In this document: positions 4,830 to 55,847 of the stretch, piece after piece
How positions within the stretch are numbered: the first letter of the stretch is position 1
How the letters are laid out: every line of letters starts with the position of its first letter
Assembly (NCBI GenBank): GCA_041879355.1
Contig: CP089922.1
Span: forward strand, 864,498-928,497
DNA from: Cyanobacteria bacterium LVE1205-1
GTDB taxonomy: Bacteria; Cyanobacteriota; Cyanobacteriia; CAIUCS01
Length of the DNA: 64,000 nucleotides
Direction of reading: 5' to 3'
Notes under the pieces: generated by a model
Seen by the model: the letters and a program-made list of their open reading frames with translations, nothing else
What the model was told of the DNA's origin: nothing
Databases searched by the model: none
Position numbers and translations under genes: made by a program

Positions 4830-5006
4830 TGGGTTCGTAACTGGTGACAGTGCTTCCGGGGTGAATTAGTTGACGATAAATCGGTGGTCATCCTGTCAGA
4901 ATTTCAAAAAAGCAATCATTTGGTTTAAAGCTGGTGAGATTCACCAATTCCTTAATCGACATTTATCATACCATGTCAAGGGAACAATCCTTAATTTCCA
5001 AGAAGA

Positions 5007-5970
5007 TTATGCTTTTTTCCATTCAGATCCATTGAATCCGCGGGGTATTTCAAGGCAGGGCTGAATGGTTTGAAGGATGGAATTACTCAAGGATTGAAGG
5101 TCATATCCCCCTTCCAACCCAAATACAACCCGATGACTGACTGAAAGGGTTAGTCGGGAAAGAAGAGCAAAATCCTCAGGATATAATGAAATACTCGACA
5201 AAGGGTCATCGTCATTCCCATCGTATCCAGCACTCACCAGCAACAAATCGGGTTTGATGTCTTTTAAAAAGGGAATCACATGATGGGTGAAAGCAGCTTC
5301 ATAGGCTTGGATGGTACTACCAGAGTCCATCGGCAGATTCAATACATTATGGTGCCACCCCTTTTCGTGGGGTGATCCAGTATGGGGATAAGCGGGTGAT
5401 TGGTGCAGGGAACAAAAAATAGTTGGGGATTTTTCTCCACCATTGCCTGGGTGCCATTCCCATGGTGAACATCCCAATCTAAAATGGCTACCCGGTGGAT
5501 ATGGGGTTGGGTTAGGGCATAGTGGGCAGCAATGGCAGCATTATTGAATACACAAAACCCCATACCTTGGTTAGCTAGGGCGTGATGCCCGGGGGACGGG
5601 CTAAAATAAAAACTGGATGGTTGGTGGTGAGTACCGTATCCACCCCATCCAGCCAGGCACTAACTGCTAATAAGGCGATGTCATAGGTACGGGGACAGAT
5701 GGGAGTATCGGGATCAAGATAGCCCCCTCCTTGTTGAGCTATCTGTTGAACTTGGTTGATATAAGCATCGGTATGCACCTGACGAATTGCTGATAGCACC
5801 CGGTTACGGTTCGATGGACTGATGGGGGTGGGGGGATGCCATTCTAATTGGTGGGATACTGGAGACGCTTTCAGTCGATTTACAATTGCAGTTAATCGTT
5901 TTGACGATTCTGGATGAAAAAGACCTGTATCATGTTCAAGGAATTCATCAGTATAAATAACTGGGAACAT
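5007..5970 (-). CDS. Histone-deacetylase-family amidohydrolase (AcuC/HDAC-like), split into 3 ORFs by two single-base indels
   Basis: Three overlapping minus-strand ORFs carry consecutive HDAC motifs: FHPESSKRL, then DWDVHHGNGTQ, then SAGYDG. Confidence 0.75.
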
Positions 5971-6032
5971 GGAGATTACCTCAATAAACTACTATGCCTT
6001 GGATAAACGGATCATCCTCCTTCCCTACTCCC

Positions 6033-7520
6033 CTAACGGGGCATCACCCTCATTAAGTCTATATTTGCTTCAATGGTATTTACCAAAATATCCAGACTGG
6101 CTTCCCGTTGTTCCTGGAAATTAGGGATACCCGTGGGTAAAGACTTCAGCCCCCGTTGTTGGCGAAGGCGGTTTAACCATGCCCGCCGCCAACAACCATT
6201 CTCAAAAATACCATGGAGGTAAGTACCCCAGAGGCATTGGCTGCTGTCTACCATTCCCAGAGTTCCATCGTCAAATAATGGCATCATGGTGAGGGGAGGG
6301 TTTTTTGTGCCACCACTGATAGGAGTGGTGCGTCCCTGATGGATTTCATAACCACGGATAGGGAGTCCGGTCTGGGGATAAAGGGAGTAGACCTGCCGTT
6401 GACGGGTAATTTTTGTCCCGCTGATGGTCGTTTTCAGGGGTAACAACTGAAGACCTATAAAACGACCCTCTAACCCCTCTGTACCTTCAGGATCAGCAAT
6501 GGTTTCACCCATCATTTGAAATCCTCCACAGATACCTAACAGGGTGCCGCCGGAAAGAACATAGTCACGGATTTGTGCCGCTAGTTGGGTTTTTTGCATT
6601 GCCAACAGGTCGGAAATGGTGGTTTTTGTCCCTGGGATAATGACGGCATCAGGACGACCTAAGGTGTCCCTAAGACCCAAATACTTTAGGTTGACACTTG
6701 GTTCGGCTGCCAAGGGGTCAAAATCAGTAAAGTTTGAGATGCGGGGTAAACGAATTACGGCAATAGTTAGGTCGCTACTACTCTTATCATTCCGACGTTC
6801 CCATAAGTCTAAAGAGTCTTCTGATGGAAAGGCATGGTCTAACCAAGGGATAACACCAATGACGGGAATCCCAACCCGGTTCTCCAGCCAAGTAATCCCT
6901 GAATCGAGGAGCGATCGCCGCCCGCGGAATTTATTGATAATAATCCCCTTGATCAAGGCACGTTCTTCAGGTTCTAGGAGTTCCAGGGTGCCAACCACAT
7001 GGGCAAATGCTCCTCCCCGTTCAATATCAACAACTAAGATGGTATGAGCATTTAGGTACTTAGCTACCCGCATGTTGGTTAAATCCCGATGCTTAAGATT
7101 AATTTCCGCTGGACTACCAGCCCCCTCGCAAACGATGATGTCATAATTGGCAGTTAGATAGTTGAGGGACCGCTGGATTTCCTGCCAACCCCGATCAAAG
7201 AATTGTTCATAATATTCTTCGGCTCCAACCTGTCCCTGTACGTTACCATTCAGGATGACTTGGGATGTCATATCTCCCAGGGGCTTGAGCAAAATTGGAT
7301 TCATTTCCACACGGGGAAGGATGCCAGCCGCCCATGCTTGCACTGCCTGGGCATAAGCAATTTCCGCCCCATTGGCAGTCACATAGGCATTTAGGGACAT
7401 ATTTTGTCCCTTAAAAGGAGTTACCCGCCACCCTTGCTTGTGTAGGATGCGGCATAATGCAGCTGTAATCAACGATTTGCCGGCATAGGAAGTTGTCCCC
7501 ACAACCATTAAAGCTTTCAT
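6033..7520 (-). CDS. cobQ: Cobyric acid synthase
   Basis: 495 aa with an N-terminal CobQ/CobB ATP-binding domain (VVGTTSYAGKS) and a C-terminal glutamine amidotransferase domain (GICGGFQMMG). Confidence 0.9.
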   Translation of the reverse strand: MKALMVVGTTSYAGKSLITAALCRILHKQGWRVTPFKGQNMSLNAYVTANGAEIAYAQAVQAWAAGILPRVEMNPILLKPLGDMTSQVILNGNVQGQVGAEEYYEQFFDRGWQEIQRSLNYLTANYDIIVCEGAGSPAEINLKHRDLTNMRVAKYLNAHTILVVDIERGGAFAHVVGTLELLEPEERALIKGIIINKFRGRRSLLDSGITWLENRVGIPVIGVIPWLDHAFPSEDSLDLWERRNDKSSSDLTIAVIRLPRISNFTDFDPLAAEPSVNLKYLGLRDTLGRPDAVIIPGTKTTISDLLAMQKTQLAAQIRDYVLSGGTLLGICGGFQMMGETIADPEGTEGLEGRFIGLQLLPLKTTISGTKITRQRQVYSLYPQTGLPIRGYEIHQGRTTPISGGTKNPPLTMMPLFDDGTLGMVDSSQCLWGTYLHGIFENGCWRRAWLNRLRQQRGLKSLPTGIPNFQEQREASLDILVNTIEANIDLMRVMPR

Positions 7521-7534
7521 GAATTCTTTTTAAT

Positions 7535-8488
7535 CTAGGTAAATAAATTGACTGGAGCCCCATTTTCCTTTTCCGTCACCACCTCTCTTTTGAGACTGTT
7601 CCCTCCAGTAGATTCCACTCCTGAATTTCTGGAGAACTTTACATGATCAACCTTCGCCAGATACCCCAACCAAGGCAAAGCTAATTGAGCAAAGTGCTCC
7701 CCTGAGCCACTGACATAAAAGTGAGTTGACGGAGTCAGAGAGGAAGTATTGCGGAGATTCAAAGAATCCAATTCCTGTACCGCTGAATGAACCACATAGA
7801 CGGCAGGGTCAACCGTCGTAACGGATGGGGGCAAAAAGGTCTTAAGAATTGGTGCTAAATGGGGATAATGGGTACAGCCATAAACCAAGGTATCCATTCC
7901 TAATGCTAGAAGAGGATCGATATAACCTCGAACAACTTGGAGGGTCAGAGGGTCATGAATACGCCCCTGTTCAATTAAAGGAACAAATTCGGGACAACTT
8001 ACTTGCCAAATGGTGACTGCCGGATCAATCTCTAACATTGCTTGTTTATAAGCATTACTCGCGGTTGTGGCGGGAGTGGCAATCACACCAATTCGTTTTC
8101 CCTGACCAACGGCTGCTCTGGCTCCGGGTAGAATCAACCCTAAAATGGGAATATTAAATTCACTTCGGATAGTGTCTAATGCCAATGCGGAACTGGTGTT
8201 ACAGGCCATAATCACCATCTTTACTCCCGTAAGAGTCATCCATGCAATGATGTCTCTGACAAACTGGATGATTTCAGTCTGGGAGCGTGTACCGTAGGGT
8301 AACCGGGCTGTATCCCCAAAATACAGAATCGATTCATTGGGCAATTGTCGGTAAAGTTCTCTAAGGACTGTTAGACCCCCAAGTCCACTGTCAAACATTC
8401 CAATCGGAAAATTTTTCACATTTTCAACTGTTGTCTGATGACAACTTTCACCACGAAAAAGATTGGACACGTTGTAATAAAAAAACAA
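7535..8488 (-). CDS. murI: Glutamate racemase; the true start is probably about 25 codons inside the ORF
   Basis: FPIGMFDSGLGGLTVLRE...YFGDTARLPYG and VYGCTHYP are MurI motifs. Confidence 0.85.
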   Translation of the reverse strand: MFFYYNVSNLFRGESCHQTTVENVKNFPIGMFDSGLGGLTVLRELYRQLPNESILYFGDTARLPYGTRSQTEIIQFVRDIIAWMTLTGVKMVIMACNTSSALALDTIRSEFNIPILGLILPGARAAVGQGKRIGVIATPATTASNAYKQAMLEIDPAVTIWQVSCPEFVPLIEQGRIHDPLTLQVVRGYIDPLLALGMDTLVYGCTHYPHLAPILKTFLPPSVTTVDPAVYVVHSAVQELDSLNLRNTSSLTPSTHFYVSGSGEHFAQLALPWLGYLAKVDHVKFSRNSGVESTGGNSLKREVVTEKENGAPVNLFT

Positions 8489-41664: not shown

Positions 41665-42305
41665 TATAATACTCCCCATATTCTGGACAGGTTAATAAGA
41701 TAGTCTCGCTGCCAATAGACTAAGAAACTATACGGAGGAGATTGCAAGCCATACAGCGAAAACGACATACCCCAGAGTTTAAGACGAAAGTGGTCGGGGA
41801 ATAAAACGATCAACGAAATCGCCAGTGAAATGGGGATTCACGCAACCCAGATTACTCAATGGAAAAAACAGGCTCAGGAAGGACTCAAGGAGATCTTTGC
41901 GGATCGCCGAGGGAAGAGCCAGGAACCCTTAATTGAGAACCTTTACCAGAACATTGGTCGGATCCAAGTGGAACTGGAATGGTTGCAAAAAAAATCTGGT
42001 CTTACCTCTTGAATCAAAGCGGGAATTCATTGAACTCGCAAACCGAGAGATCAGCATTGTGCGTCAGTGCGAATTGCTGGGACTCAATCGAAGCAGCCAG
42101 GGAAAGCTCACCTAACGAGTACCTGATGGGAAAGTTGGATGAGCAGTATACCCAAACTCCGTTCTACGGGGTATTGGGAATGACGGAAGTCCTGCGAGCC
42201 CAAGGAGAAGAGGTCAATCCTAAACGAGTCCGTCGTCTACTCAGGGTAATGGGGTTAGAAGCTATCTATCCCAAACCCAAAATCTCATCGCCAGGTGAGA
42301 ATAGT
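41665..42305 (+). mobile_element. IS3-family element copy A, 3'-truncated (orfA plus the first roughly 110 codons of orfB, ending at a junction with IS5)
   Basis: orfA reads ...GIHATQITQWKKQAQEGLKEIFADRRGKS...LEWLQKK, followed by an A8 slippery run. orfB N-terminus is ...ISIVRQCELLGLNRSS...PFYGVLGMTEVLRAQGEEVNPKRVRRLLRVMGLEAIYPKPKISS. The 5' 110 bp match the reverse complement of 47356..47466. Confidence 0.7.
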
Positions 42306-43021
42306 CGTCATAGTGGCGGCTGCTCCCCGCTGGGCAATGGCTTCATGACAGGCGAAGGTGTCATAGGCTCCATCGCCCGAAACTTGAGCAATCTCACCAG
42401 CAATGCCCTCTAGCAAACTGGGCAATATCTCGCTGTCGTGAAAGTCATTGGTGGTGACTTCAGCGACCATACTCTCGCCAGTGGACTCATCGATACCGAG
42501 GTGCAGCTTACGCCAGGTGCGCCGTTTGCCCACCCCATGTTGTCGGGATTTCCATTCCCCCTCTCCATACACTTTTACCCCCGTAGAATCCACCACAACA
42601 TGTCGAGCCCTGCTCTGCGGTTGAACCGGTATAGAAACCGATAAGGCAGCCAATCGACGCGATACCGTGCTGTGGTCGGGCATGGGTAGGGAGATGTCCA
42701 TCAACTGAAATACCGATTCAACAAATCCTTGAGCTTGACGCCCAGCCAGATGGAATAGGCTCTTGAGGGTCGCTACAGTCGCAATCGCCGTGTCACTGTA
42801 GAGTTGAGAGGCTCCTCGCCGACCCGTCGCGGTGTTCATTACCCATTGCTCAAGGGCATCTTTGCTCAACCATAGGGTGAGAGTGCCGCGCTGCTTCAGA
42901 CCAGCGTTACAATCAGACCAGTTGCGGACTCGGTACGGCATAGATGTCAGGTTTTAGGTGGTACTTCAACTTTACGCTATACCTACCCCGTCCGTAACAC
43001 CCTATTTATGCAACAACGCCC
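42306..43021 (-). mobile_element. IS5-family element copy 1, 3'-truncated (N-terminal 210 aa of the transposase)
   Basis: Transposase MPYRVRNWSDCNAGLKQRGTLTLWLSKD...DDE region ...VVDSTGVKVYGEGEW is about 95% identical to copy 2 at 50141..51070. The shared IR GGCGTTGTTGCATAAATAGGG lies at 43000-43021. It diverges from copy 2 after ...AQRGAAAT. Confidence 0.75.
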
Positions 43022-48325: not shown

Positions 48326-50040
48326 AACCTACATTCCGCAGGTTGACAGGGAATAAAAGATGCGGGATGTTCTAAGCTAAAGGGAAGTCCTTCTAGCAGT
48401 AGGTTCCTCCCTTGCAAATCGAGAATTTAGACCATCTCGGCTTAGTGGCGGGGATGATTGATGAATTAGGTCTAGTAGAGCTGACCAACGAGCAGATTGA
48501 ACCCCACTGCCTGGAGCATGTGAGTGCAGGGCAAGTGGTGAAAGCGATGATCCTCAACGCCCTGGGCTTTCTGAGTGTGCCGTTATACCTATTCAGCGAG
48601 TTTTTTGACAGTAAGGCGGTGTCCCACCTGAATGATGACCGCTTAGGGCGGGTGTTAAATCAACTCTACGAGGCAGGCATCACCCCATTGCTCATGAAGG
48701 TGGCACTGCAAGCGGTACAGCGGTTTGGCATCAACATCGAGCAGTGCCATCTAGATTCGACCTCGATATCGGTTGAGGGGGAGTATGCCTGGGCTACAGT
48801 GACTAAACCCAAGGGGTCAGCAGAGAAGGACAGTCGTGAGGAACCGATTCCGATTGAGATTTGTCGAGGCTATTCCCGAGATCACCGACCAGATTTGAAG
48901 CAGTTCTTGCTCACCGTGTAGCGCCGATGGGGGTGTACCGCTGTGGTTCAAGGTAGCCAGTGGCAATCGCCCCGACAGTGAGGTGTTGCCCAAGTGCTGA
49001 AAAACTTTAGCGAGCAGTGGACTCAGGAGGGAGTGTTTGTGATGGATGCTGCCTTTTACACTCAGCCAAACCTACAGCAGGTGGGGAGTCTGGGGTGGCT
49101 ATCGCGGGTACCCCTGACCCTAAAGGCAGCTCAAGCACTGGTTCAGAGCGAGGTGAGTCTGCTGTCAGAGGTCACTTGCGACTCATTGGATTATCGGATG
49201 TGGGAAGTCGAACCTATGGCGAGGTAGCCCAGCGTTGGGTGTTAATCGAAAGTCAGCACCGCAAAGCCAATGATGCCCTGTGGCGACTGGAAGTAGAGAA
49301 GCTAGAAAGTCGGCTCAATGGGCAGCTCAAGGCTCTCACCCAGACAGTGTTTGCCTGCAAACCCGATGCCTTGGACGCGGTGATGGCGTTTCAAGATAGC
49401 TTGGAGCTCCATCAATTGACCCACATTAGCCAACCCAGTCCTGTCCAAGCGAGCCCCCGGTCGTCCGTCCAAGGAGGCTGAGCCGGTCTCGGTTCAGGGC
49501 TATCAACTACAGGCAACGTTGGAGCGCAAAGCCAATACCGAAGAGACCTTTAGCCACCAGCGTAGCCACTTTATCCTGGCAACCAACCAATTGGATAAAA
49601 CGCGGTGGTCAGCGCAGAAGCTATTGCAGGAATATAAAGCTCAACAAACTGTAGAGCGAGGGTTTCGCTTCCTCAAAGACCCCCTGTTCTTTGTCAGTAG
49701 TGTGGTTGTCAAAAAGCCCCAGCGGGTCGAGGCACTGGCACTGATTATGGCTCTCACCTTGATGGTCTACACCCTGGCAGAACGCAAGCTGCGTCAGACC
49801 CTCGAAGACCAAAACCAGACGGTGTGCGACCAACGCAAACAGCCTACTGCTAAGCCCACCTTTCGTTGGATTATGCAAAAGTTTCAGGGTATTCACTGGA
49901 TCAACCTGGAGGGACAGCACCAGATCAGCAACCTGAGCGATGAGCGACGACTGATTATTCGCCTATTGGGACCACCAGTTGAGCGGTATTACTACGCATC
50001 TGGTTAATCATTTATCAATCTGCGGAATGTAGGTTAAAAC
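48326..50040 (+). mobile_element. IS1634-family element (about 1.7 kb) with 23 bp terminal IRs AACCTACATTCCGCAG(G/A)TTGA and a 5 bp TSD ACGCT. The transposase is split into 3 ORFs.
   Basis: A DUF4277-like N-terminus (MQIENLDHLGLVAGMIDELGLVE...HVSAGQVVKAMILNALGFLS..LYLF.EFF), ...RGYSRDHRPDLKQ, and the C-terminal DDE region. ACGCT is found at 48321-48325 and 50041-50045. Confidence 0.75.
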
Positions 50041-50067: not shown

Positions 50068-51125
50068 GTTGCATGAATAGGGTGTCACGAACGGGGTAGG
50101 TATAGCGTAAAGTTGAAGTACCATCTAAAACCTGACACCTATGCCGTACCGAGTCCGCAACTGGTCTGATTATAACGCTGGTCTGAAGGAGCGCGGCAGT
50201 CTCACCCTATGGTTGAGCAAAGATGCCCTTGAGCAATGGGTAATGAACACCGCGACGGGTCGGCGAGGAGCCTCTCAACTCTACAGTGACACGGCGATTG
50301 CGACTGTAGCGACCCTCAAGAGCGTATTCCATCTGGCTGGGCGTTAAGCCCAGGGATTTGTCGAATCGGTGTTTCAGTTGATGAATATCCCCTTACCCGT
50401 GCCCGACCACAGTACGGTATCGCGTCGATTGTCCGCCTTATCGGTCTCTATACCGGTTCAACCGCAGAGCAGGGCTCGGCATGTTGTGGTGGATTCTACG
50501 GGGGTAAAAGTGTATGGAGAGGGGGAATGGAAAGCCCGACAACATGGGGTGGGCAAACGGCGCACCTGGCGTAAGCTGCACCTCGGTATCGATGAGTCCA
50601 CTGGCGAGAGTATGGTCGCTGAAGTCACCACCAATGACTTTCACGACAGCGAGATATTGCCCAGTTTGCTAGAGGGCATTGCTGGTGAGATGGCTCAAGT
50701 TTCGGGCGATGGAGCCTATGACACCTTCGCCTGTCATGAAGCCATTGCCCAGCGGGGAGCAGCCGCCACTATTCCGCCTCGCCATGATGCCCGCCCCACA
50801 CTCAGCATGGAGTACCTAACCCGACCCACCCCAGGGACTAAATCTTGCAACGTATTGAGCAGGTGGATCGTGCGGACTGGAGGCAAGAGAGCGGCTATCA
50901 CCGTCGGTCTCTTGCTGAAACCACTATGTTTCGTCTCAAGGTCACCTTTGGGGGGCGCGTCCGATTCGCGGAGTTTTGACAACCAGGCTGTCGAGCTCTT
51001 CTTGCAGTGTGCGGCGCTGAATCGTATGATTCAAGTGGCTAAGCCTGATAGCTATCCGGTTGAAGCTTAACTTACTGACCTTAACGGCGAAACCCCTGAC
51101 CCTGGATTATTCATGCAACAAAGCC
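50068..51125 (+). mobile_element. IS5-family element copy 2, full length (IRL GGCGTTGTTGCATGAATA / IRR GGCTTTGTTGCATGAATA). The transposase has one frameshift at about 50345-50370.
   Basis: ORFs 50141..50347 and 50369..51070 together give a roughly 310 aa DDE transposase. The 18 bp imperfect IRs are at both ends. Confidence 0.8.
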
Positions 51126-51185
51126 TATCTTCATGACCCTTCTGTCCTGTTCTCTTCATGATTCATACTTTATCCTGCAACGCCC
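51126..51185 (+). mobile_element. 60 bp terminal remnant of an IS1-family element (identical to the reverse complement of 46125..46185)
   Basis: TATCTTCATGACCCTTCTGTCCTGTTCTCTTCATGATTCATACTTTATCCTGCAACGCCC is shared with the IS1 copy at 46125. Confidence 0.65.
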
Positions 51186-51377
51186 GGCGTTCATTTGGTT
51201 AATCAGTCGATTTTGCAGAGCATTCATTCCCGAAGAACAGCAATTTTGCCATCCATTTACAAAAACAATATAAGGACGTGATGATTGCACTGCTGCTGGT
51301 CTTGTTAACAACGCTGTTCCAAGCAATGAAGTGAACATTACCGAACTAACCTTGGTCAGTATCTTACCTAATTTCAT
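51186..51377 (-). CDS. Integron cassette 2 ORF, 3'-truncated by an IS1 remnant: a signal peptide plus a possible alpha/beta-hydrolase (lipase-like) start
   Basis: MKLGKILTKVSSVMFTSLLGTALLTRPAAVQS|SRPYIVFVNGWQNCC.... The last 9 codons of the listed ORF (51156..51185) come from the IS1 IR. Confidence 0.4.
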
Positions 51378-51501: not shown

Positions 51502-51588
51502 GTCTAACGTTCCCGCTCACCGGACGTAGATGAATTTGGCAACCAACTGACTGCTTAAATACGTTCCGGTGCAGCGGGCTTGTTAGAC
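51502..51588 (-). other. Integron attC recombination site (87 bp): inverse core GTCTAAC, imperfect palindrome with 2 extrahelical bases, core GTTAGAC
   Basis: GTCTAAC-G-TTCCCGCTCACCGGACGT...(loop)...ACGTTCCGGTGCAGCGGG-CTT-GTTAGAC. The arms pair except for a bulged T and a bulged C on the plus strand. It lies 24 bp downstream of the cassette 1 stop. Confidence 0.7.
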
Positions 51589-51612
51589 TGCTGTCGCGAC
51601 TACACACCCTGA

Positions 51613-52935
51613 TTACTCCTCAGGATCTCTTGAAAATCTGTATTGCTGGATAGGCAAGTTATCTCGGCGTTCAGGTAATCTTTCCAAGGGACTAATGAAA
51701 AGCCTAGATCTCGATTCTTCTATAATACGAACCCCACCTTGATTTCTAACAAAGCTCTGAAATTCCTGTAAATTCTGAATTCCAACTCCCAATTGCAGCG
51801 AAAAATCAAGAGTCTTTGCAGATGGATCAAAAGCTTCACCCATAGCAAGATTTCTAAACCAACGAAGCTTTAAGTTTTCACTTAAAGTAGCAGGAGGAAT
51901 CATAGGAGATGATGCTGGTATCTGGGCTGTTAAATGGCAGCTAAGACAAGAGGAAACGGGATTATCTACTGGGCCGTTCCCTCGTCCAGCCCAGCCTAGA
52001 GTTTTTGGAGGATTAATCCCAGCAGGTGGATTAGAGCGATATTTTACAATTGGTGCATCAGAGTCAATCCATGATTCCTTGGGACGTTGCCCTGTATCAT
52101 ACATTGACTGTGTTAAGTCTGGATCATTACCCCACATCAGAGTTAGTGGACGAACCCTTTTCCAAGGTGAGTCAGCCTGCACACTTGAATCATACTGAAA
52201 GGTTCCAAATACCCATCCACTAGCTTTAGAACGCCCATCGCGTACTGCAACATCAATCTGTAATAATCTAACTTTAGTAGCTTGAATAGTATCTACATTT
52301 CCACTTCTATCAATGTCTGCAACCCACTCAGGAGAGCCGTCAAGGTAAGGAACCTCTGAAACAGGTGCGGTGGTGAATAACAATTTATAGGAAACTGTAC
52401 CCTCTGGGAATTTTGCTTTCTCAACATCTGGCTTATCAGGCTTAGACCACACTTGCCCAAGAGTAAATCCTCCAGCACTGTTGTAAAAACCGATTGCATA
52501 ATTTCTATACTGCTGGCTTTGCTGTGGAGATAGCTCAAATGGTCTTGAGCTACGCTCACGTGTTAATCCATGAACAAATTCACGACCATTATTCCCCCAA
52601 TGCAACCAAGGCGCGTGAAACCATTTGCGAACAGTGTTTTTTTGAACCGCAAAATCATTTTCTAAACTACCTTCATAGCTGTAGTTCAAGACAGCCATTA
52701 AATACTCACGAGGGGAAGTTCGGAAATCAATGTTCATCCAGGGAGCATTTTCAGCTTCGGGTTTTTGTTGAGGGTAATCCTGGCTTAAGACAAACTTGCT
52801 TTCACTCCAGTTAGATGGGGGACTATATCCAATATCTGGGAATGTTGCAGCTAGTACTTGATTCAAAAACAACGATTGTATAAATACAAGTATTGCAACT
52901 GTGAGAAAGCATTTCTTTATCTTCTCAATGAACAT
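51613..52935 (-). CDS. Integron cassette 1 ORF: a 440 aa secreted protein of unknown family with a single CXXCH motif
   Basis: A Sec signal peptide (MFIEKIKKCFLTVAILVFIQSLFLNQVLA|AT), no recognisable domain, and ...NPVSSCLSCHLTAQ near the C-terminus. It is bounded by the attI R box (53014-53020) and the attC. Confidence 0.7.
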   Translation of the reverse strand: MFIEKIKKCFLTVAILVFIQSLFLNQVLAATFPDIGYSPPSNWSESKFVLSQDYPQQKPEAENAPWMNIDFRTSPREYLMAVLNYSYEGSLENDFAVQKNTVRKWFHAPWLHWGNNGREFVHGLTRERSSRPFELSPQQSQQYRNYAIGFYNSAGGFTLGQVWSKPDKPDVEKAKFPEGTVSYKLLFTTAPVSEVPYLDGSPEWVADIDRSGNVDTIQATKVRLLQIDVAVRDGRSKASGWVFGTFQYDSSVQADSPWKRVRPLTLMWGNDPDLTQSMYDTGQRPKESWIDSDAPIVKYRSNPPAGINPPKTLGWAGRGNGPVDNPVSSCLSCHLTAQIPASSPMIPPATLSENLKLRWFRNLAMGEAFDPSAKTLDFSLQLGVGIQNLQEFQSFVRNQGGVRIIEESRSRLFISPLERLPERRDNLPIQQYRFSRDPEE

Positions 52936-53013
52936 TGAAACACCTAGTTTTATTTTGAGTACTTTACCGTCGAGCCAGAATCATGAAGAAAACACTGCCT
53001 AGAATTTGAAGCA

Positions 53014-53200
53014 GTCTAACTATGTATTAGACAGAAACTTTCTGTCTAATCTGACTATAGGCGATTTAGCCCGAAAGTCAAATTTCTGCCTAATCACCCT
53101 ATATGTCATGTTATACGGAAACTTTCTGACTAAATACCCCATACGTTATGTTATGAAGAATCTTTCTGAATAATCATCCAAATAGCGTGTTAGCCCGACT
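53014..53200 (-). other. Putative attI: a simple site (L box GTCTAAT, 5 bp spacer, R box GTTAGAC on the minus strand) plus four tandem degenerate 40 bp direct repeats between it and intI
   Basis: Plus strand 53014-53032 is GTCTAACTATGTATTAGAC. Repeats GAAACTTTCTGTCTAAT (53034), AAATTTCTGCCTAAT (53080), GAAACTTTCTGACTAAA (53118) and AATCTTTCTGAATAAT (53159) alternate with related 20 bp spacers. There are several GTTA-containing core-like heptamers. Confidence 0.55.
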
Positions 53201-53242: not shown

Positions 53243-54214
53243 ATGCAGTCTGAGCCATCGCATCGAAAGCTATTAGATAGGGTACGGGATCAAGTCAGGG
53301 TTAAGCATTACTCCTATCGCACTGAAGAGACTTATGTACAGTGGATTCGGCGATTTATCTTGTTTCACAACAAGCGGCATCCTAGCGAGATGGATGGCGA
53401 TGAAGTGAATGCCTTTTTGACCCACTTGGCGGTGCATGAAAATGTGGCAGCATCAACCCAAAACCAAGCTCTATGCGCCATTTTGTTTTTATATCGTGAG
53501 GTATTGCAGCAAGAGCTAAACCTCAATCTGGACACAGTGAGAGCAAAGCGTCCCCATTACTTGCCAACGGTCTTGACTGTTGAAGAAACTTTAGAAATCT
53601 TAAAAAATCTTACGGGTGTTTATCAGATTGTTGCCAAGTTGCTTTATGGTTCGGGATTACGCCTCAATGAAGCATTGTCCCTACGGGTTAAGGATCTTGA
53701 TTTTGCCCAACAGCAGATTATTGTCAGAGATAGTAAGGGGATGGAAAGTCGTGTAACAATGCTGCCCAAAAATGTTGTTGAGCAACTTAAAGAACATTTA
53801 CAACAGGTAAAGCGTACACATCAACAGGATCTAGATAGAGGTTATGGGGAGACGCTGTTACCCTTTGCTTTACAGAAAAAATATCCTAACGCCGCCAAAG
53901 AATGGATTTGGCAATATGTATTTCCTGCGGGTCGCATTGCCAAAGATCCGCGTAGTGAATTGATGTGTCGCTATCATCTTCATGAAAGCGGAATGCAAAA
54001 ATCGCTGAAGCAAGCCGTGAGAATTGCCAAGATCGAAAAACGGATCGGATGTCATACCTTTCGCCATAGTTTCGCTACACATTTATTGCAAAATGGCTAT
54101 GATATCCGCACGGTGCAAGAGTTATTGGGACATAAAGATGTAAAGACAACGATGATTTATACCCATATGCTGAATCGGGGTGGAAAGGGTGTGATTAGTC
54201 CGCTTGATCGCTAG
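53243..54214 (+). CDS. intI: Integron integrase
   Basis: 323 aa tyrosine recombinase with catalytic R ([15 protein letters not shown]), H-x-x-R ([13 protein letters not shown]) and Y (MIYTHML). It has the IntI-specific additional domain ([20 protein letters not shown]) and an IntI-type C-terminus ([28 protein letters not shown]). Confidence 0.93.
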
Positions 54215-54254: not shown

Positions 54255-54365
54255 ATGGCAAAAGCAAAAAGTCGATATGTATGTAATGACTGTGGTGAAG
54301 ACTTTCCACAGATGTATGGCAAATGTCCTACTTGCTCTAGTTGGGGAACCTTGCAAGAGGAAATA
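54255..54365 (+). pseudogene. radA: 5' fragment (first roughly 37 codons) of DNA repair protein RadA/Sms. The rest of the gene is absent from the window.
   Basis: MAKAKSRYVCNDCGEDFPQMYGKCPTCSSWGTLQEEI is the RadA C4 zinc-finger N-terminus. After residue 37 the ORF reads unrelated sequence. Confidence 0.7.
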
Positions 54366-54599
54366 ATTCCTGTCATGTCCACAAGTACCAATGCGATCGC
54401 ATTAAGCTATAGCAAACCCTGTATACTCGCGTATCTTAGGATAACGAAAGCCAAGTACTATATCCTCTTTGGGAATACCTGCTTCCACTAAATCAGGGGT
54501 AGTCCTTACCCCAAAATCATTACCTTCTTGCCACTACCATAAACGAATTGGGTAAAAAACAACCCTGCCATGATTTACGTCAGTGTGAATTGGATCAAT

Positions 54600-55847
54600 T
54601 CATTTATTTTCCTTGCGACGACGTTGAAGAAATTCAGGAATATCTAATCCGGGGGACGGTGGAGGAGATGGAGTGGGCTTAGACTCATTGGGTGGAACGG
54701 GAAGTTGGGATGGGAAGGATTTGTCTCCTCTCCAGGGGGTTGAAGGGGGTGAAGTACCGAAAGACTGGGATATATCAGCGGCAACTTCTGGCATAAAGCC
54801 AGTGGCAATTACAGTAATGCGGACTTCTCCCTGGATACGGTCATCAATCACAGCCCCAAAAATGATATTTGCATTAGGATCAACGACATCGTAAATTGCT
54901 TCCGCCGCCGCATTAACTTCGTATAACGTTAAATCGTGTCCACCCGTGATGTTAAAGACTACCCCCCGGGCTCCATCGATAGAGGTTGCCAACAATGGAG
55001 AGGCGATCGCTGCTGCTGCTGCCTCTCTTGCCCTAGACTTGCCAGAACCAACTCCAATACCCATCAAGGCGGAGCCTGCGTCAGCCATCACTGCCCTAAC
55101 ATCAGCAAAGTCAACATTAACTAATCCGGGGATGGTAATAATATCTGTAATACCTTGTACACCCTGACGCAAAACATCATCAGCGAAACGAAACGCTTCA
55201 TGCACCGGAGTTTGTTCGGAAACAGCAGACAAAAGCTTATCATTAGGAATGACAATTAAAGTATCCACATTGGCTTGTAAGGCAGCGATTCCTTCCTCAG
55301 CCTGATTAGTTCGCCGCCGTCCTTCAAAGGCAAACGGTCTGGTTACCACACCCACCGTAAGGGCACCAGCTTCTTTTGCCATTTCAGCGACAATGGGCGC
55401 TGCACCAGTGCCGGTTCCTCCTCCCATGCCAGCGGTAATAAATACCAAATCTGCATGTTCGATGGAAGCGGAAATATCATCCCTGGATTCTTCTGCGGCT
55501 TTGGCACCAATGGCTGGGTTACCACCAGCCCCCAAACCCCGAGTTAATTTTTGCCCCATTTGCAATCGCTGGGGGGCAGCAGACTGCAAGAGAGCCTGAG
55601 CATCAGTATTCATTGCCCAGAACTCAACCCCTGTAACTTCACTGGCAATCATGCGGTTGACTGCATTACTTCCGCCTCCACCCACACCAATTACTTTAAT
55701 GCGAGCGATACTACTGGGTATGATATTGTCTATTTTCATTTTTTCCCCTGGAGAACTATTCATACCCGGGAATGGAATGTACTCATGAGCTTTGTCAGTG
55801 TGAGATCCAGAGTGGTTAAATGGGTTAGAAGTGATCATTGTCAGCAA
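54600..55847 (-). CDS. ftsZ: Cell division GTPase FtsZ
   Basis: [17 protein letters not shown], the tubulin signature GGGTGTG, and NTDAQAL, in 415 aa. Confidence 0.95.

Follow-up and report, generated by a model that had tools for sequence, protein, structure and literature searches.

An integron cassette of a cyanobacterium encodes a large exported protein that is probably a distant relative of the cytochromes P460 and c'-beta

The cassette gene and its product

The DNA analysed here (the window) is a stretch of 64,000 nucleotides from Cyanobacteria bacterium LVE1205-1 (GenBank assembly GCA_041879355.1, contig CP089922.1, positions 864,498 to 928,497 of the forward strand). It carries a chromosomal integron with one intact cassette, and the single gene of this cassette encodes a protein of 440 amino acids with a predicted export signal and one haem c attachment motif. 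The protein belongs to a large family which is likely to form a distant, enlarged branch of the cytochrome P460/c'-beta superfamily. The gene has the following features.

51613..52935, minus strand: open reading frame (ORF) of 440 amino acids, protein XGB40062.1, with an ATG start and in-frame stops directly upstream
52849..52935, minus strand: Sec-type signal peptide, residues 1-29, predicted cut between VLA and A, placed by the hydrophobicity profile and the start of family conservation
51934..51948, minus strand: CLSCH (C330, C333, H334), haem c attachment motif with the proximal His, from the sequence and the family alignment

XGB40062.1 is identical to the protein deposited for this metagenome-assembled genome, 'Cyanobacteria bacterium LVE1205-1', where it is labelled 'hypothetical protein'. 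Homologues align with it over their full length, one of them (P0001) being 89% identical end to end over 100% of the length. Therefore the reading frame is not a product of frameshifts or assembly errors, a doubt that had been raised in a first-pass annotation made from the sequence alone.

The N-terminus, MFIEKIKKCFLTVAILVFIQSLFLNQVLA before the predicted cut and ATFPD after it, has a basic n-region and a hydrophobic core with a 12-residue Kyte-Doolittle mean of up to 2.66. In an alignment of 27 family sequences, strict conservation starts at F32-P33-D34, directly past the variable leader. These features agree with the secretion by a Sec leader, cut after VLA, that the first-pass annotation had proposed. 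A lipoprotein was rejected since there is no lipobox Cys, and a substrate of the twin-arginine (Tat) pathway since the twin-arginine motif is missing. The two motifs quoted in that annotation are present, WFHAPWLHWGNNGREF at residue 105 and GWAGRGNGPVDNPVSSCLSCH at residue 314. The mature protein had also been described as rich in W, G, N and P, which holds for W (3.2%) and P (8.8%), whereas G (6.6%) and N (5.1%) are ordinary.

The CXXCH motif occurs once in the 440 residues (330-334), and the only other Cys sits in the leader. It is thus a lone motif, as had been noted; however, it lies three-quarters along the protein and not at the extreme C-terminus. A class I cytochrome c with His/Met ligation was rejected, because no distal Met is conserved and the protein does not match PF00034. 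The only Met past the motif in a conserved stretch, M345, is M, L, V or I among homologues, and the 27-sequence alignment contains no conserved Met that might be the sixth haem ligand.

Relationship to the cytochrome P460/c'-beta superfamily

Homologues of the protein fall into about 2,412 clusters at 90% identity and 1,080 clusters at 50% identity, of which 361 are below E 1e-30, and 360 family loci were found among species-representative genomes. The family is present in more than 10 phyla, including Planctomycetota, Verrucomicrobiota, Acidobacteriota, Bacteroidota, Actinobacteria, Chloroflexota, Armatimonadota, and Melainabacteria. Many members are proteobacterial (Variovorax, Massilia, Dyella, Paraburkholderia, Rheinheimera), and further searches added Pseudomonas, Xanthomonas and, outside the proteobacterial list, Hymenobacter. 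Nearly all members are annotated as 'hypothetical' or 'cytochrome c domain-containing'; a 49% identical homologue on a Variovorax plasmid carries the NCBI name 'cytochrome P460 family protein'. In the literature on P460 (enlarged forms, integrons, nucleases, cyanobacteria) and on heterotrophic nitrification, no account of this enlarged family was found.

The known members of the superfamily are proteobacterial proteins of 135-200 amino acids built on a five-stranded sheet (PMC11928373). In the true P460 cytochromes a Lys is cross-linked to the haem, and those that oxidise hydroxylamine (NH2OH) also need a precisely placed distal carboxylate; in the c'-beta cytochromes Met or Phe replaces the Lys, and Ala or Gly replaces the carboxylate (PMC11928373). 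Superfamily members have a single domain and mostly form homodimers, and their five-stranded antiparallel sheet is a fold found in no other family. In P460 cytochromes the cross-link joins the Lys N-epsilon to a haem meso-carbon and goes with a ferrous Soret band near 460 nm, and Phe41, Arg50 or Phe76 caps the distal side. The part of the gene that appears to correspond to this fold, and the codons of its two key residues, are as follows; NeP460 and McP460 are P460 cytochromes.

51919..52584, minus strand: P460/c'-beta-like core, residues 118-339, placed by PF16694, hhalign and Foldseek
52384..52386, minus strand: codon of K184, which aligns with the haem cross-linking Lys (NeP460 Lys70) in three hhalign runs
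52252..52254, minus strand: codon of D228, which aligns in hhalign with the distal proton-relay carboxylate (NeP460 Glu96, McP460 Asp102)

Three lines of evidence lead to this assignment. The only Pfam match of the protein is PF16694 (Cytochrome_P460), at 19.4 bits with an E-value of 0.0015, in which residues 175-251 are placed on profile positions 40-98. The same profile is matched by 26 of 27 diverse relatives (E at most 0.1, best E 1.8e-7), and its cut-off is passed by five relatives: P0177 (33.2 bits), P0394 (32.2), P0114 (32.1), P0428 (30.4), and P0178 (28.8). These matches span about positions 16-99 of the 125 in the profile and never reach its CXXCH part. A search of the protein against NCBIfam gave no match.

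The second line is structural. Two AlphaFold models, one of the full protein (predicted local distance difference test, pLDDT, 79; predicted template-modelling score, pTM, 0.80) and one of the core alone (residues 97-395, from an alignment of 65 sequences; pLDDT 87, pTM 0.86), were compared by Foldseek with 350,542 PDB chains. The top eight matches of the full model and the top five of the core model are all P460 or c'-beta cytochromes, and the top PDB entries are 6hih, 7s5o, 2je2, 8gar, and 9htv.

The third line is profile alignment. The P460 reference profile was made from 120 true P460 sequences, at least 56% identical to NeP460, whose sequence was confirmed to be 100% identical to PDB 2je2 chain A. 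By hhalign the family aligns with P460 profiles over 118 columns at E 0.0015-0.006; the real score is 31.4, against 15.6 for a reversed profile and a maximum of 22.9 for 30 column shuffles. The chief local motif behind this signal is F-x-[DE]-G-T-V-x-x-K-x-L.

The Pfam matches, the structural comparison, and the profile alignment are independent and converge on one superfamily, so the relationship is likely, and membership as a haem protein is equally likely. Judged by its sequence, the family is an uncharacterised, enlarged, and distant branch of a known superfamily and no orphan. The statement that the protein has no recognisable family does not stand in view of the reproducible sub-threshold match, its recurrence in nearly all relatives tried, the five scores above the cut-off, and the P460 label at NCBI; the alternative given with it, that the protein is too diverged to place, was the closer description. 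Homology to a characterised family without haem was also looked for, and none was found with confidence.

The residues aligned by hhalign with NeP460 are listed below, together with position 157 and Q226, and conservation is counted over up to 269 family members.

R118-E-F: NeP460 R-E-W, first core strand; R118 conserved in 265/266
Position 157, the presumed cap: Y/F/W in 227/267
K184: conserved in 265/269
Q226: conserved in 266/268
D228: conserved in 266/268
W241: NeP460 Trp of GNWAF, core strand; conserved in 266/266
CLSCH 330-334: NeP460 CAACH, haem attachment; CXXCH conserved in about 250/259 (~97%)

This mapping agrees with the coordinates of the Pfam profile. In both models K184 and D228 each occupy a mid-strand position in the predicted sheet, as their counterparts do in P460, and F157 falls in the column of NeP460 Phe41 when the hhalign alignment is extended by eye. 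At the level of the alignment, therefore, K184 and D228 would be the retained P460-defining Lys and catalytic carboxylate, and the family has many other invariant polar residues. Since CXXCH is kept in about 250 of 259 members and the domain is related to c-type P460 cytochromes, the motif is almost certainly a site of covalent haem c attachment. Such attachment had been proposed from the motif alone, with the reservation that the motif might vary among homologues, which these counts answer.

With 440 residues (411 in the mature form), the protein has about 250 extra residues and is some 2.5 times as large as any member characterised so far. The N-terminus is extended from residue 30 to about 100, and two long segments that canonical P460 does not have are inserted, one at about 190-222, between the strands of K184 and D228, and one at about 250-326. 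An extra segment of some 60 residues ahead of CXXCH holds an invariant N-G-P-V-D-N motif, and about 40 extra residues follow CXXCH, plus a C-terminal tail modelled at low confidence. The high pTM suggests a single globular unit in which the extra segments surround the core.

Compared with cytochrome P460 (CytL) of Nitrosomonas europaea and Methylococcus capsulatus (2je2/2je3, 6hiu; PF16694), the protein appears likewise to be an exported mono-haem c protein with CXXCH toward the C-terminal side of a beta-sheet core. In the alignment K184 corresponds to Lys70/Lys78, D228 to Glu96/Asp102 (an Asp, as in McP460), and F157 to Phe41, and the local motifs F-x-[DE]-G-T-V-x-x-K-x-L and G-[N]-W-x-F are common to both. 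In both the gene is mostly stand-alone and at times on mobile elements. The two differ in length (440 against 135-200 amino acids), as the N-terminal extension, two insertions, and C-terminal tail belong only to the query, and in the distance from the last core strand to CXXCH, which is about 80 residues here and about 20 in P460. They differ also in host, since the query family occurs in Cyanobacteria, Acidobacteriota, Verrucomicrobiota and others, not in nitrifiers or methanotrophs.

The c'-beta cytochromes (McCP-beta 6hih, NeCP-beta 7s5o, TtCP-beta 7ead) appear to share superfamily and fold and give the best Foldseek matches of the models. They are mono-haem c proteins that bind ligands at a five-coordinate haem. 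However, they lack the Lys and the carboxylate and have mostly hydrophobic pockets, whereas the query family keeps both residues and a polar invariant set. Hydroxylamine oxidoreductase (HAO), whose haem P460 is a cross-linked c-haem that oxidises NH2OH, may be a functional analogue; its fold is unrelated and multi-haem, its cross-link is to Tyr, and it has dedicated electron-transfer partners, none of which is seen in the query.

Possible function and alternative explanations

A proposed mechanism can be described as follows. The protein would be exported by Sec and would carry one c-type haem, attached covalently at C330/C333 and ligated on the proximal side by H334. A distant, enlarged P460/c'-beta beta-sheet would form the core, with some 250 extra residues wrapped around it. 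The haem would be of the P460 type, high-spin and catalytic with an open site, probably cross-linked to Lys (K184), and D228 would act as the proton-relay carboxylate. An open-site catalytic haem is proposed because K184, D228, and the invariant polar residues are kept and no Met is conserved. A small nitrogen species would be bound and oxidised, the model reaction being that of hydroxylamine to nitric oxide (NO) or nitrous oxide (N2O). Acceptors in the periplasm or the membrane would take up the electrons, and Bacteroidota versions of the module have a DoxX membrane domain fused to them. In this Pseudanabaena-like cyanobacterium the gene is accessory: a chromosomal integron captured it as its first cassette, the only one that is intact, and transcription would come from the attI side. 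We lean slightly towards a cross-linked catalytic site of the P460 type; hydroxylamine in particular as the substrate is doubtful.

Several observations weigh against this proposal, some at the level of homology and others at that of function. The Pfam score of the query, 19.4 bits, is under the PF16694 gathering cut-off of 27, and the PDB gave no match in sequence and profile searches, whether these started from the query or from the family alignment. The Foldseek scores are weak (E 0.02-0.25, TM-score about 0.3), as are the hhalign scores (probability 6-17%, E 0.0015-0.006). Profiles shuffled in ten-column blocks score alike (mean 27, maximum 33.3); therefore the hhalign signal consists of local motifs, and collinearity is not demonstrated. 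An HMM (hidden Markov model) built on the 120 NeP460-like sequences alone was dropped as support, since it did not separate the family from shuffled or reversed decoys.

As to function, NeP460 Arg44, which ruffles the haem and promotes the cross-link, aligns with Gly160 of the query; a residue of this type is not universal, as McP460 and NsP460 also differ there (PMC11928373). Either of the highly conserved H107 and H112 may act as a sixth ligand, and the haem would then be low-spin and serve electron transfer. Gene neighbours at 80 loci were clustered all against all, and 106 operon-like neighbours, drawn from 83 loci, were scanned against Pfam. Over these 80-83 loci there is no universal partner gene, and amo, hao, nir, nor or dedicated redox-partner genes do not occur as conserved neighbours at the 83 loci. 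The nuclease, peptidase, and amidohydrolase links described below are not predicted by a role as a hydroxylamine oxidase.

An alternative that we consider unlikely is a haem protein with this fold but without catalytic activity, in which the Lys and the Asp would be structural. It could bind or buffer NO or carbon monoxide (CO) in the manner of c'-beta, or it could be a simple electron-transfer cytochrome that serves partner enzymes. The c'-beta proteins rank level with the P460s in Foldseek, H107 or H112 could supply the sixth ligand, and the cytochrome NsP460 is cross-linked yet catalytically inactive (PMC11928373). One domain fusion can be read in the same way: in the representative P0152, the fusion to a sulfite-oxidase-type molybdopterin domain resembles haem electron-acceptor domains. 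Versions from Bacteroidota (L046, L047, L061, L072, L074, target about 5940-7710; P0140) have a C-terminal DoxX membrane domain. Both fusions suggest electron transfer to quinone or another redox centre, and as such they fit the oxidoreductase of the main proposal. However, the c'-beta proteins have Met/Phe and Ala/Gly where the K and D of this family are about 99% conserved, the invariant polar residues are unlike the hydrophobic pockets of c'-beta, and no conserved redox partner is encoded beside the gene. At the DoxX loci, an ORF of about 440 amino acids matching reverse transcriptase (RVT_1) follows directly.

Neighbours and fusions of another kind point elsewhere. The only recurrent neighbours are genes for an amidohydrolase (8/83 loci) and an S41 peptidase (4/83 loci). 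Variovorax, Burkholderiales, Chthoniobacterales, and Steroidobacter have operon-like trios in the order S41 peptidase, P460-like protein, amidohydrolase (L007, L012, L015, L017, L026, L027, and L057, besides L090:3858-8862 on plasmid 2 of Variovorax sp. RA8). At the Steroidobacter locus (L057) a single protein of 1157 amino acids combines the amidohydrolase with the S41 peptidase. Metagenomic proteins show fusions to nucleases or phosphoesterases (Endonuclease I, S1/P1, EEP; P0177, P0178, P0240, P0214), the Endonuclease I fusions amounting to only seven clusters. Fusion or adjacency to secreted nucleases, including DNA/RNA non-specific endonuclease, is found repeatedly (P0389-P0393; L005:3743-5887; L091:10363-12288). 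A gene for Trypsin_2 + Endonuclease I lies directly upstream of the P460-like gene in Rheinheimera, and genes for a caspase-family protein and a DNA/RNA endonuclease lie near it on a Sinorhizobium plasmid.

These associations would fit a protein that forms the oxidative part of a secreted toolkit for digestion or attack, with peroxidase-like or reactive-nitrogen chemistry and no detoxification of hydroxylamine. A tyrosinase gene beside an 84% identical cyanobacterial homologue (L081) and the peroxidase-like activity of NeCP-beta (PMC11928373) are in line with it. Hydroxylamine oxidation leaves the hydrolase links without explanation, and therefore this explanation is kept alive. On the other hand, the associations concern a minority of loci and, for the nuclease fusions, few clusters; the protein stands alone in the cassette of the window, and co-secretion is no proof of a common function. 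On balance it appears rather improbable. A metal or disulfide role for CXXCH, with a likeness to P460 that is due to chance, is very improbable: each link to P460 is statistically modest, but three independent methods point to one small family, five relatives pass the Pfam cut-off, and the exported protein, in which this motif does not vary, has no other Cys.

Small proteobacterial P460 cytochromes and HAO are the only proteins in which the haem P460 cofactor is known; no other biological haem is known to oxidise a bound substrate (NH2OH) to NO, and this cofactor ties nitrification directly to N2O emission (PMC11928373). What is new here points to a mobile, multi-phylum family of about 2,400 clusters that would keep the cross-link Lys and the carboxylate in a protein 2.5 times larger. 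If the family is active, the distribution of P460 chemistry would be much wider, the genes would be candidates for the poorly understood hydroxylamine metabolism of heterotrophs, and protein chemists would have a natural, elaborated P460 scaffold. If it is inactive or transfers electrons, it would still be among the larger uncharacterised families of exported haem proteins, with links to nucleases, peptidases, and amidohydrolases that need explanation.

A more far-reaching possibility, which seems quite doubtful, is that the family forms an unrecognised and widespread class of large Lys-cross-linked P460 enzymes that convert hydroxylamine to NO/N2O in non-nitrifiers of more than ten phyla. Its hosts would be soil Acidobacteriota, Verrucomicrobiota, and Planctomycetota, Pseudomonas, Xanthomonas, rhizobial plasmids, and cyanobacteria, and it would be spread by integrons and conjugative plasmids. 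If this were true, the family would contribute, unnoticed so far, to the turnover of hydroxylamine and the emission of N2O. In cyanobacteria it would protect photosystem II, as a mobile trait, from the hydroxylamine that neighbouring nitrifiers release. Hydroxylamine destroys the manganese cluster of photosystem II, which would be an appealing rationale in a cyanobacterial host.

The integron and the rest of the window

The integron and the DNA next to it contain the following features.

53243..54214, plus strand: intI, integron integrase XGB40063.1, 323 amino acids, TIGR02249 at 458 bits against a cut-off of 265
53054..53081, minus strand: promoter-like TTGACT-16-TATAGT facing the cassette, a candidate Pc, found as a consensus match; such sites are no commoner than chance
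53014..53185, minus strand: attI region with a GTTAGAC core at 53014-53020, a perfect palindrome, and four CAGAAAGTTTC-like direct repeats, read from the sequence
51508..53019, minus strand: cassette 1, about 1.5 kb, bounded by recombination points between G and TTAGAC, placed by the attI and attC cores
51502..51588, minus strand: attC of 87 nucleotides, R'' GTCTAAC and R' GTTAGAC, with imperfect inverted arms, found by repeat search and pattern scan
51156..51377, minus strand: ORF of 73 amino acids past attC, from the ORF list, apparently cut off by an insertion sequence (IS) and with no attC after it
50141..51070, plus strand: IS with a DDE transposase in two frames, from the ORF list, which terminates the cassette array

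The intI gene, which NCBI also labels integron integrase, is divergent from the cassette ORF. The attC has a folding energy of -39.7 kcal/mol and is the only one in the 64-kb window, as no further credible site was found there even by looser scans; therefore the array is not a multi-cassette one. The attI palindrome is a perfect 12+12 at 53026-53050, and the CAGAAAGTTTC-like repeats lie within 53040-53185. Both are kept beside intI in three Pseudanabaena loci (L084, L087, L088), and they are candidate accessory binding sites for IntI.

Clustered at 90% identity, the IntI of the window falls in a group of 86 sequences, most of them from Pseudanabaena. The first cassettes beside at least 90% identical IntI in Pseudanabaena are different and unrelated: their ORFs have 148, 53, and 201 amino acids in P. 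mucicola, 437 at L087, and 122 and 130 at L088. The 437-residue product at L087 was considered as a homologue and rejected (E = 3). The attC, the attI core, the integrase score, and the varying first cassettes beside related intI genes bear out the earlier description of the gene as an accessory, mobile cassette. The single ORF between the attI core and an 87-nucleotide attC, the divergent intI, and the variable content are as in chromosomal integron cassettes; unlike in these, the 1.5 kb exceed most cassettes, and the array consists of one intact cassette followed by an IS.

It had been suggested to look for homologues among the cassettes of other integrons, and one was found. P0005, 67% identical to the query, is the first cassette of another cyanobacterial integron (L083:3772-6419), whose IntI is 54% identical to that of the window and co-directional with the cassettes (the 'inverted' arrangement). 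The core sites there are slightly off consensus (AGCTAAC...GTTAGCT), and cassettes for HNH/HIT, HigB, and TacA/TacT come next. The attC of the window (GTCTAAC...GTTAGAC) is unlike the GCATAAC...GTTATGC type of the related Pseudanabaena arrays (L084/L087, e.g. L087:3404-3643), and this difference in sequence type suggests that cassette 1 originated in another integron pool.

Outside integrons, the 84% identical homologue at L081, with the tyrosinase gene directly upstream, has no recognisable attC at its locus. It is flanked by direct repeats of about 100 bp (4850-4960 and 6350-6440) containing GCGATCGC (HIP1-like), and genes for DndB and a Tn7 TnsA-like protein are nearby. Homologues are also found on 28 plasmids, 18 of them conjugative. 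From the integron cassettes, the repeat and Tn7-like setting of L081, and the conjugative plasmids, it follows that the gene is mobile by several routes. For the homologue from Kamptonema (P0004), no contig position was found.

The 73-residue ORF past attC is possibly the remnant of a second cassette. Its N-terminus (MKLGKILTKVSSVMFTSLLGTALL...YIVFVNGW) is like a signal peptide, and it ends abruptly near the IS. A transposase remnant at 48994-50007, together with this IS, truncates the region downstream of the cassette. A second copy of the IS lies at about 42285-42941, with shared sequence at 42716-42809 and 50273-50349. On the other side, between intI and ftsZ (54600-55847), a plus-strand ORF of 78 amino acids (54255-54491) that starts with MAKAKSRYVCNDCGEDFPQMYGKCPTCSSWGTLQEE looks like a truncated gene, which we take to resemble the zinc-finger N-terminus of RadA/Sms.

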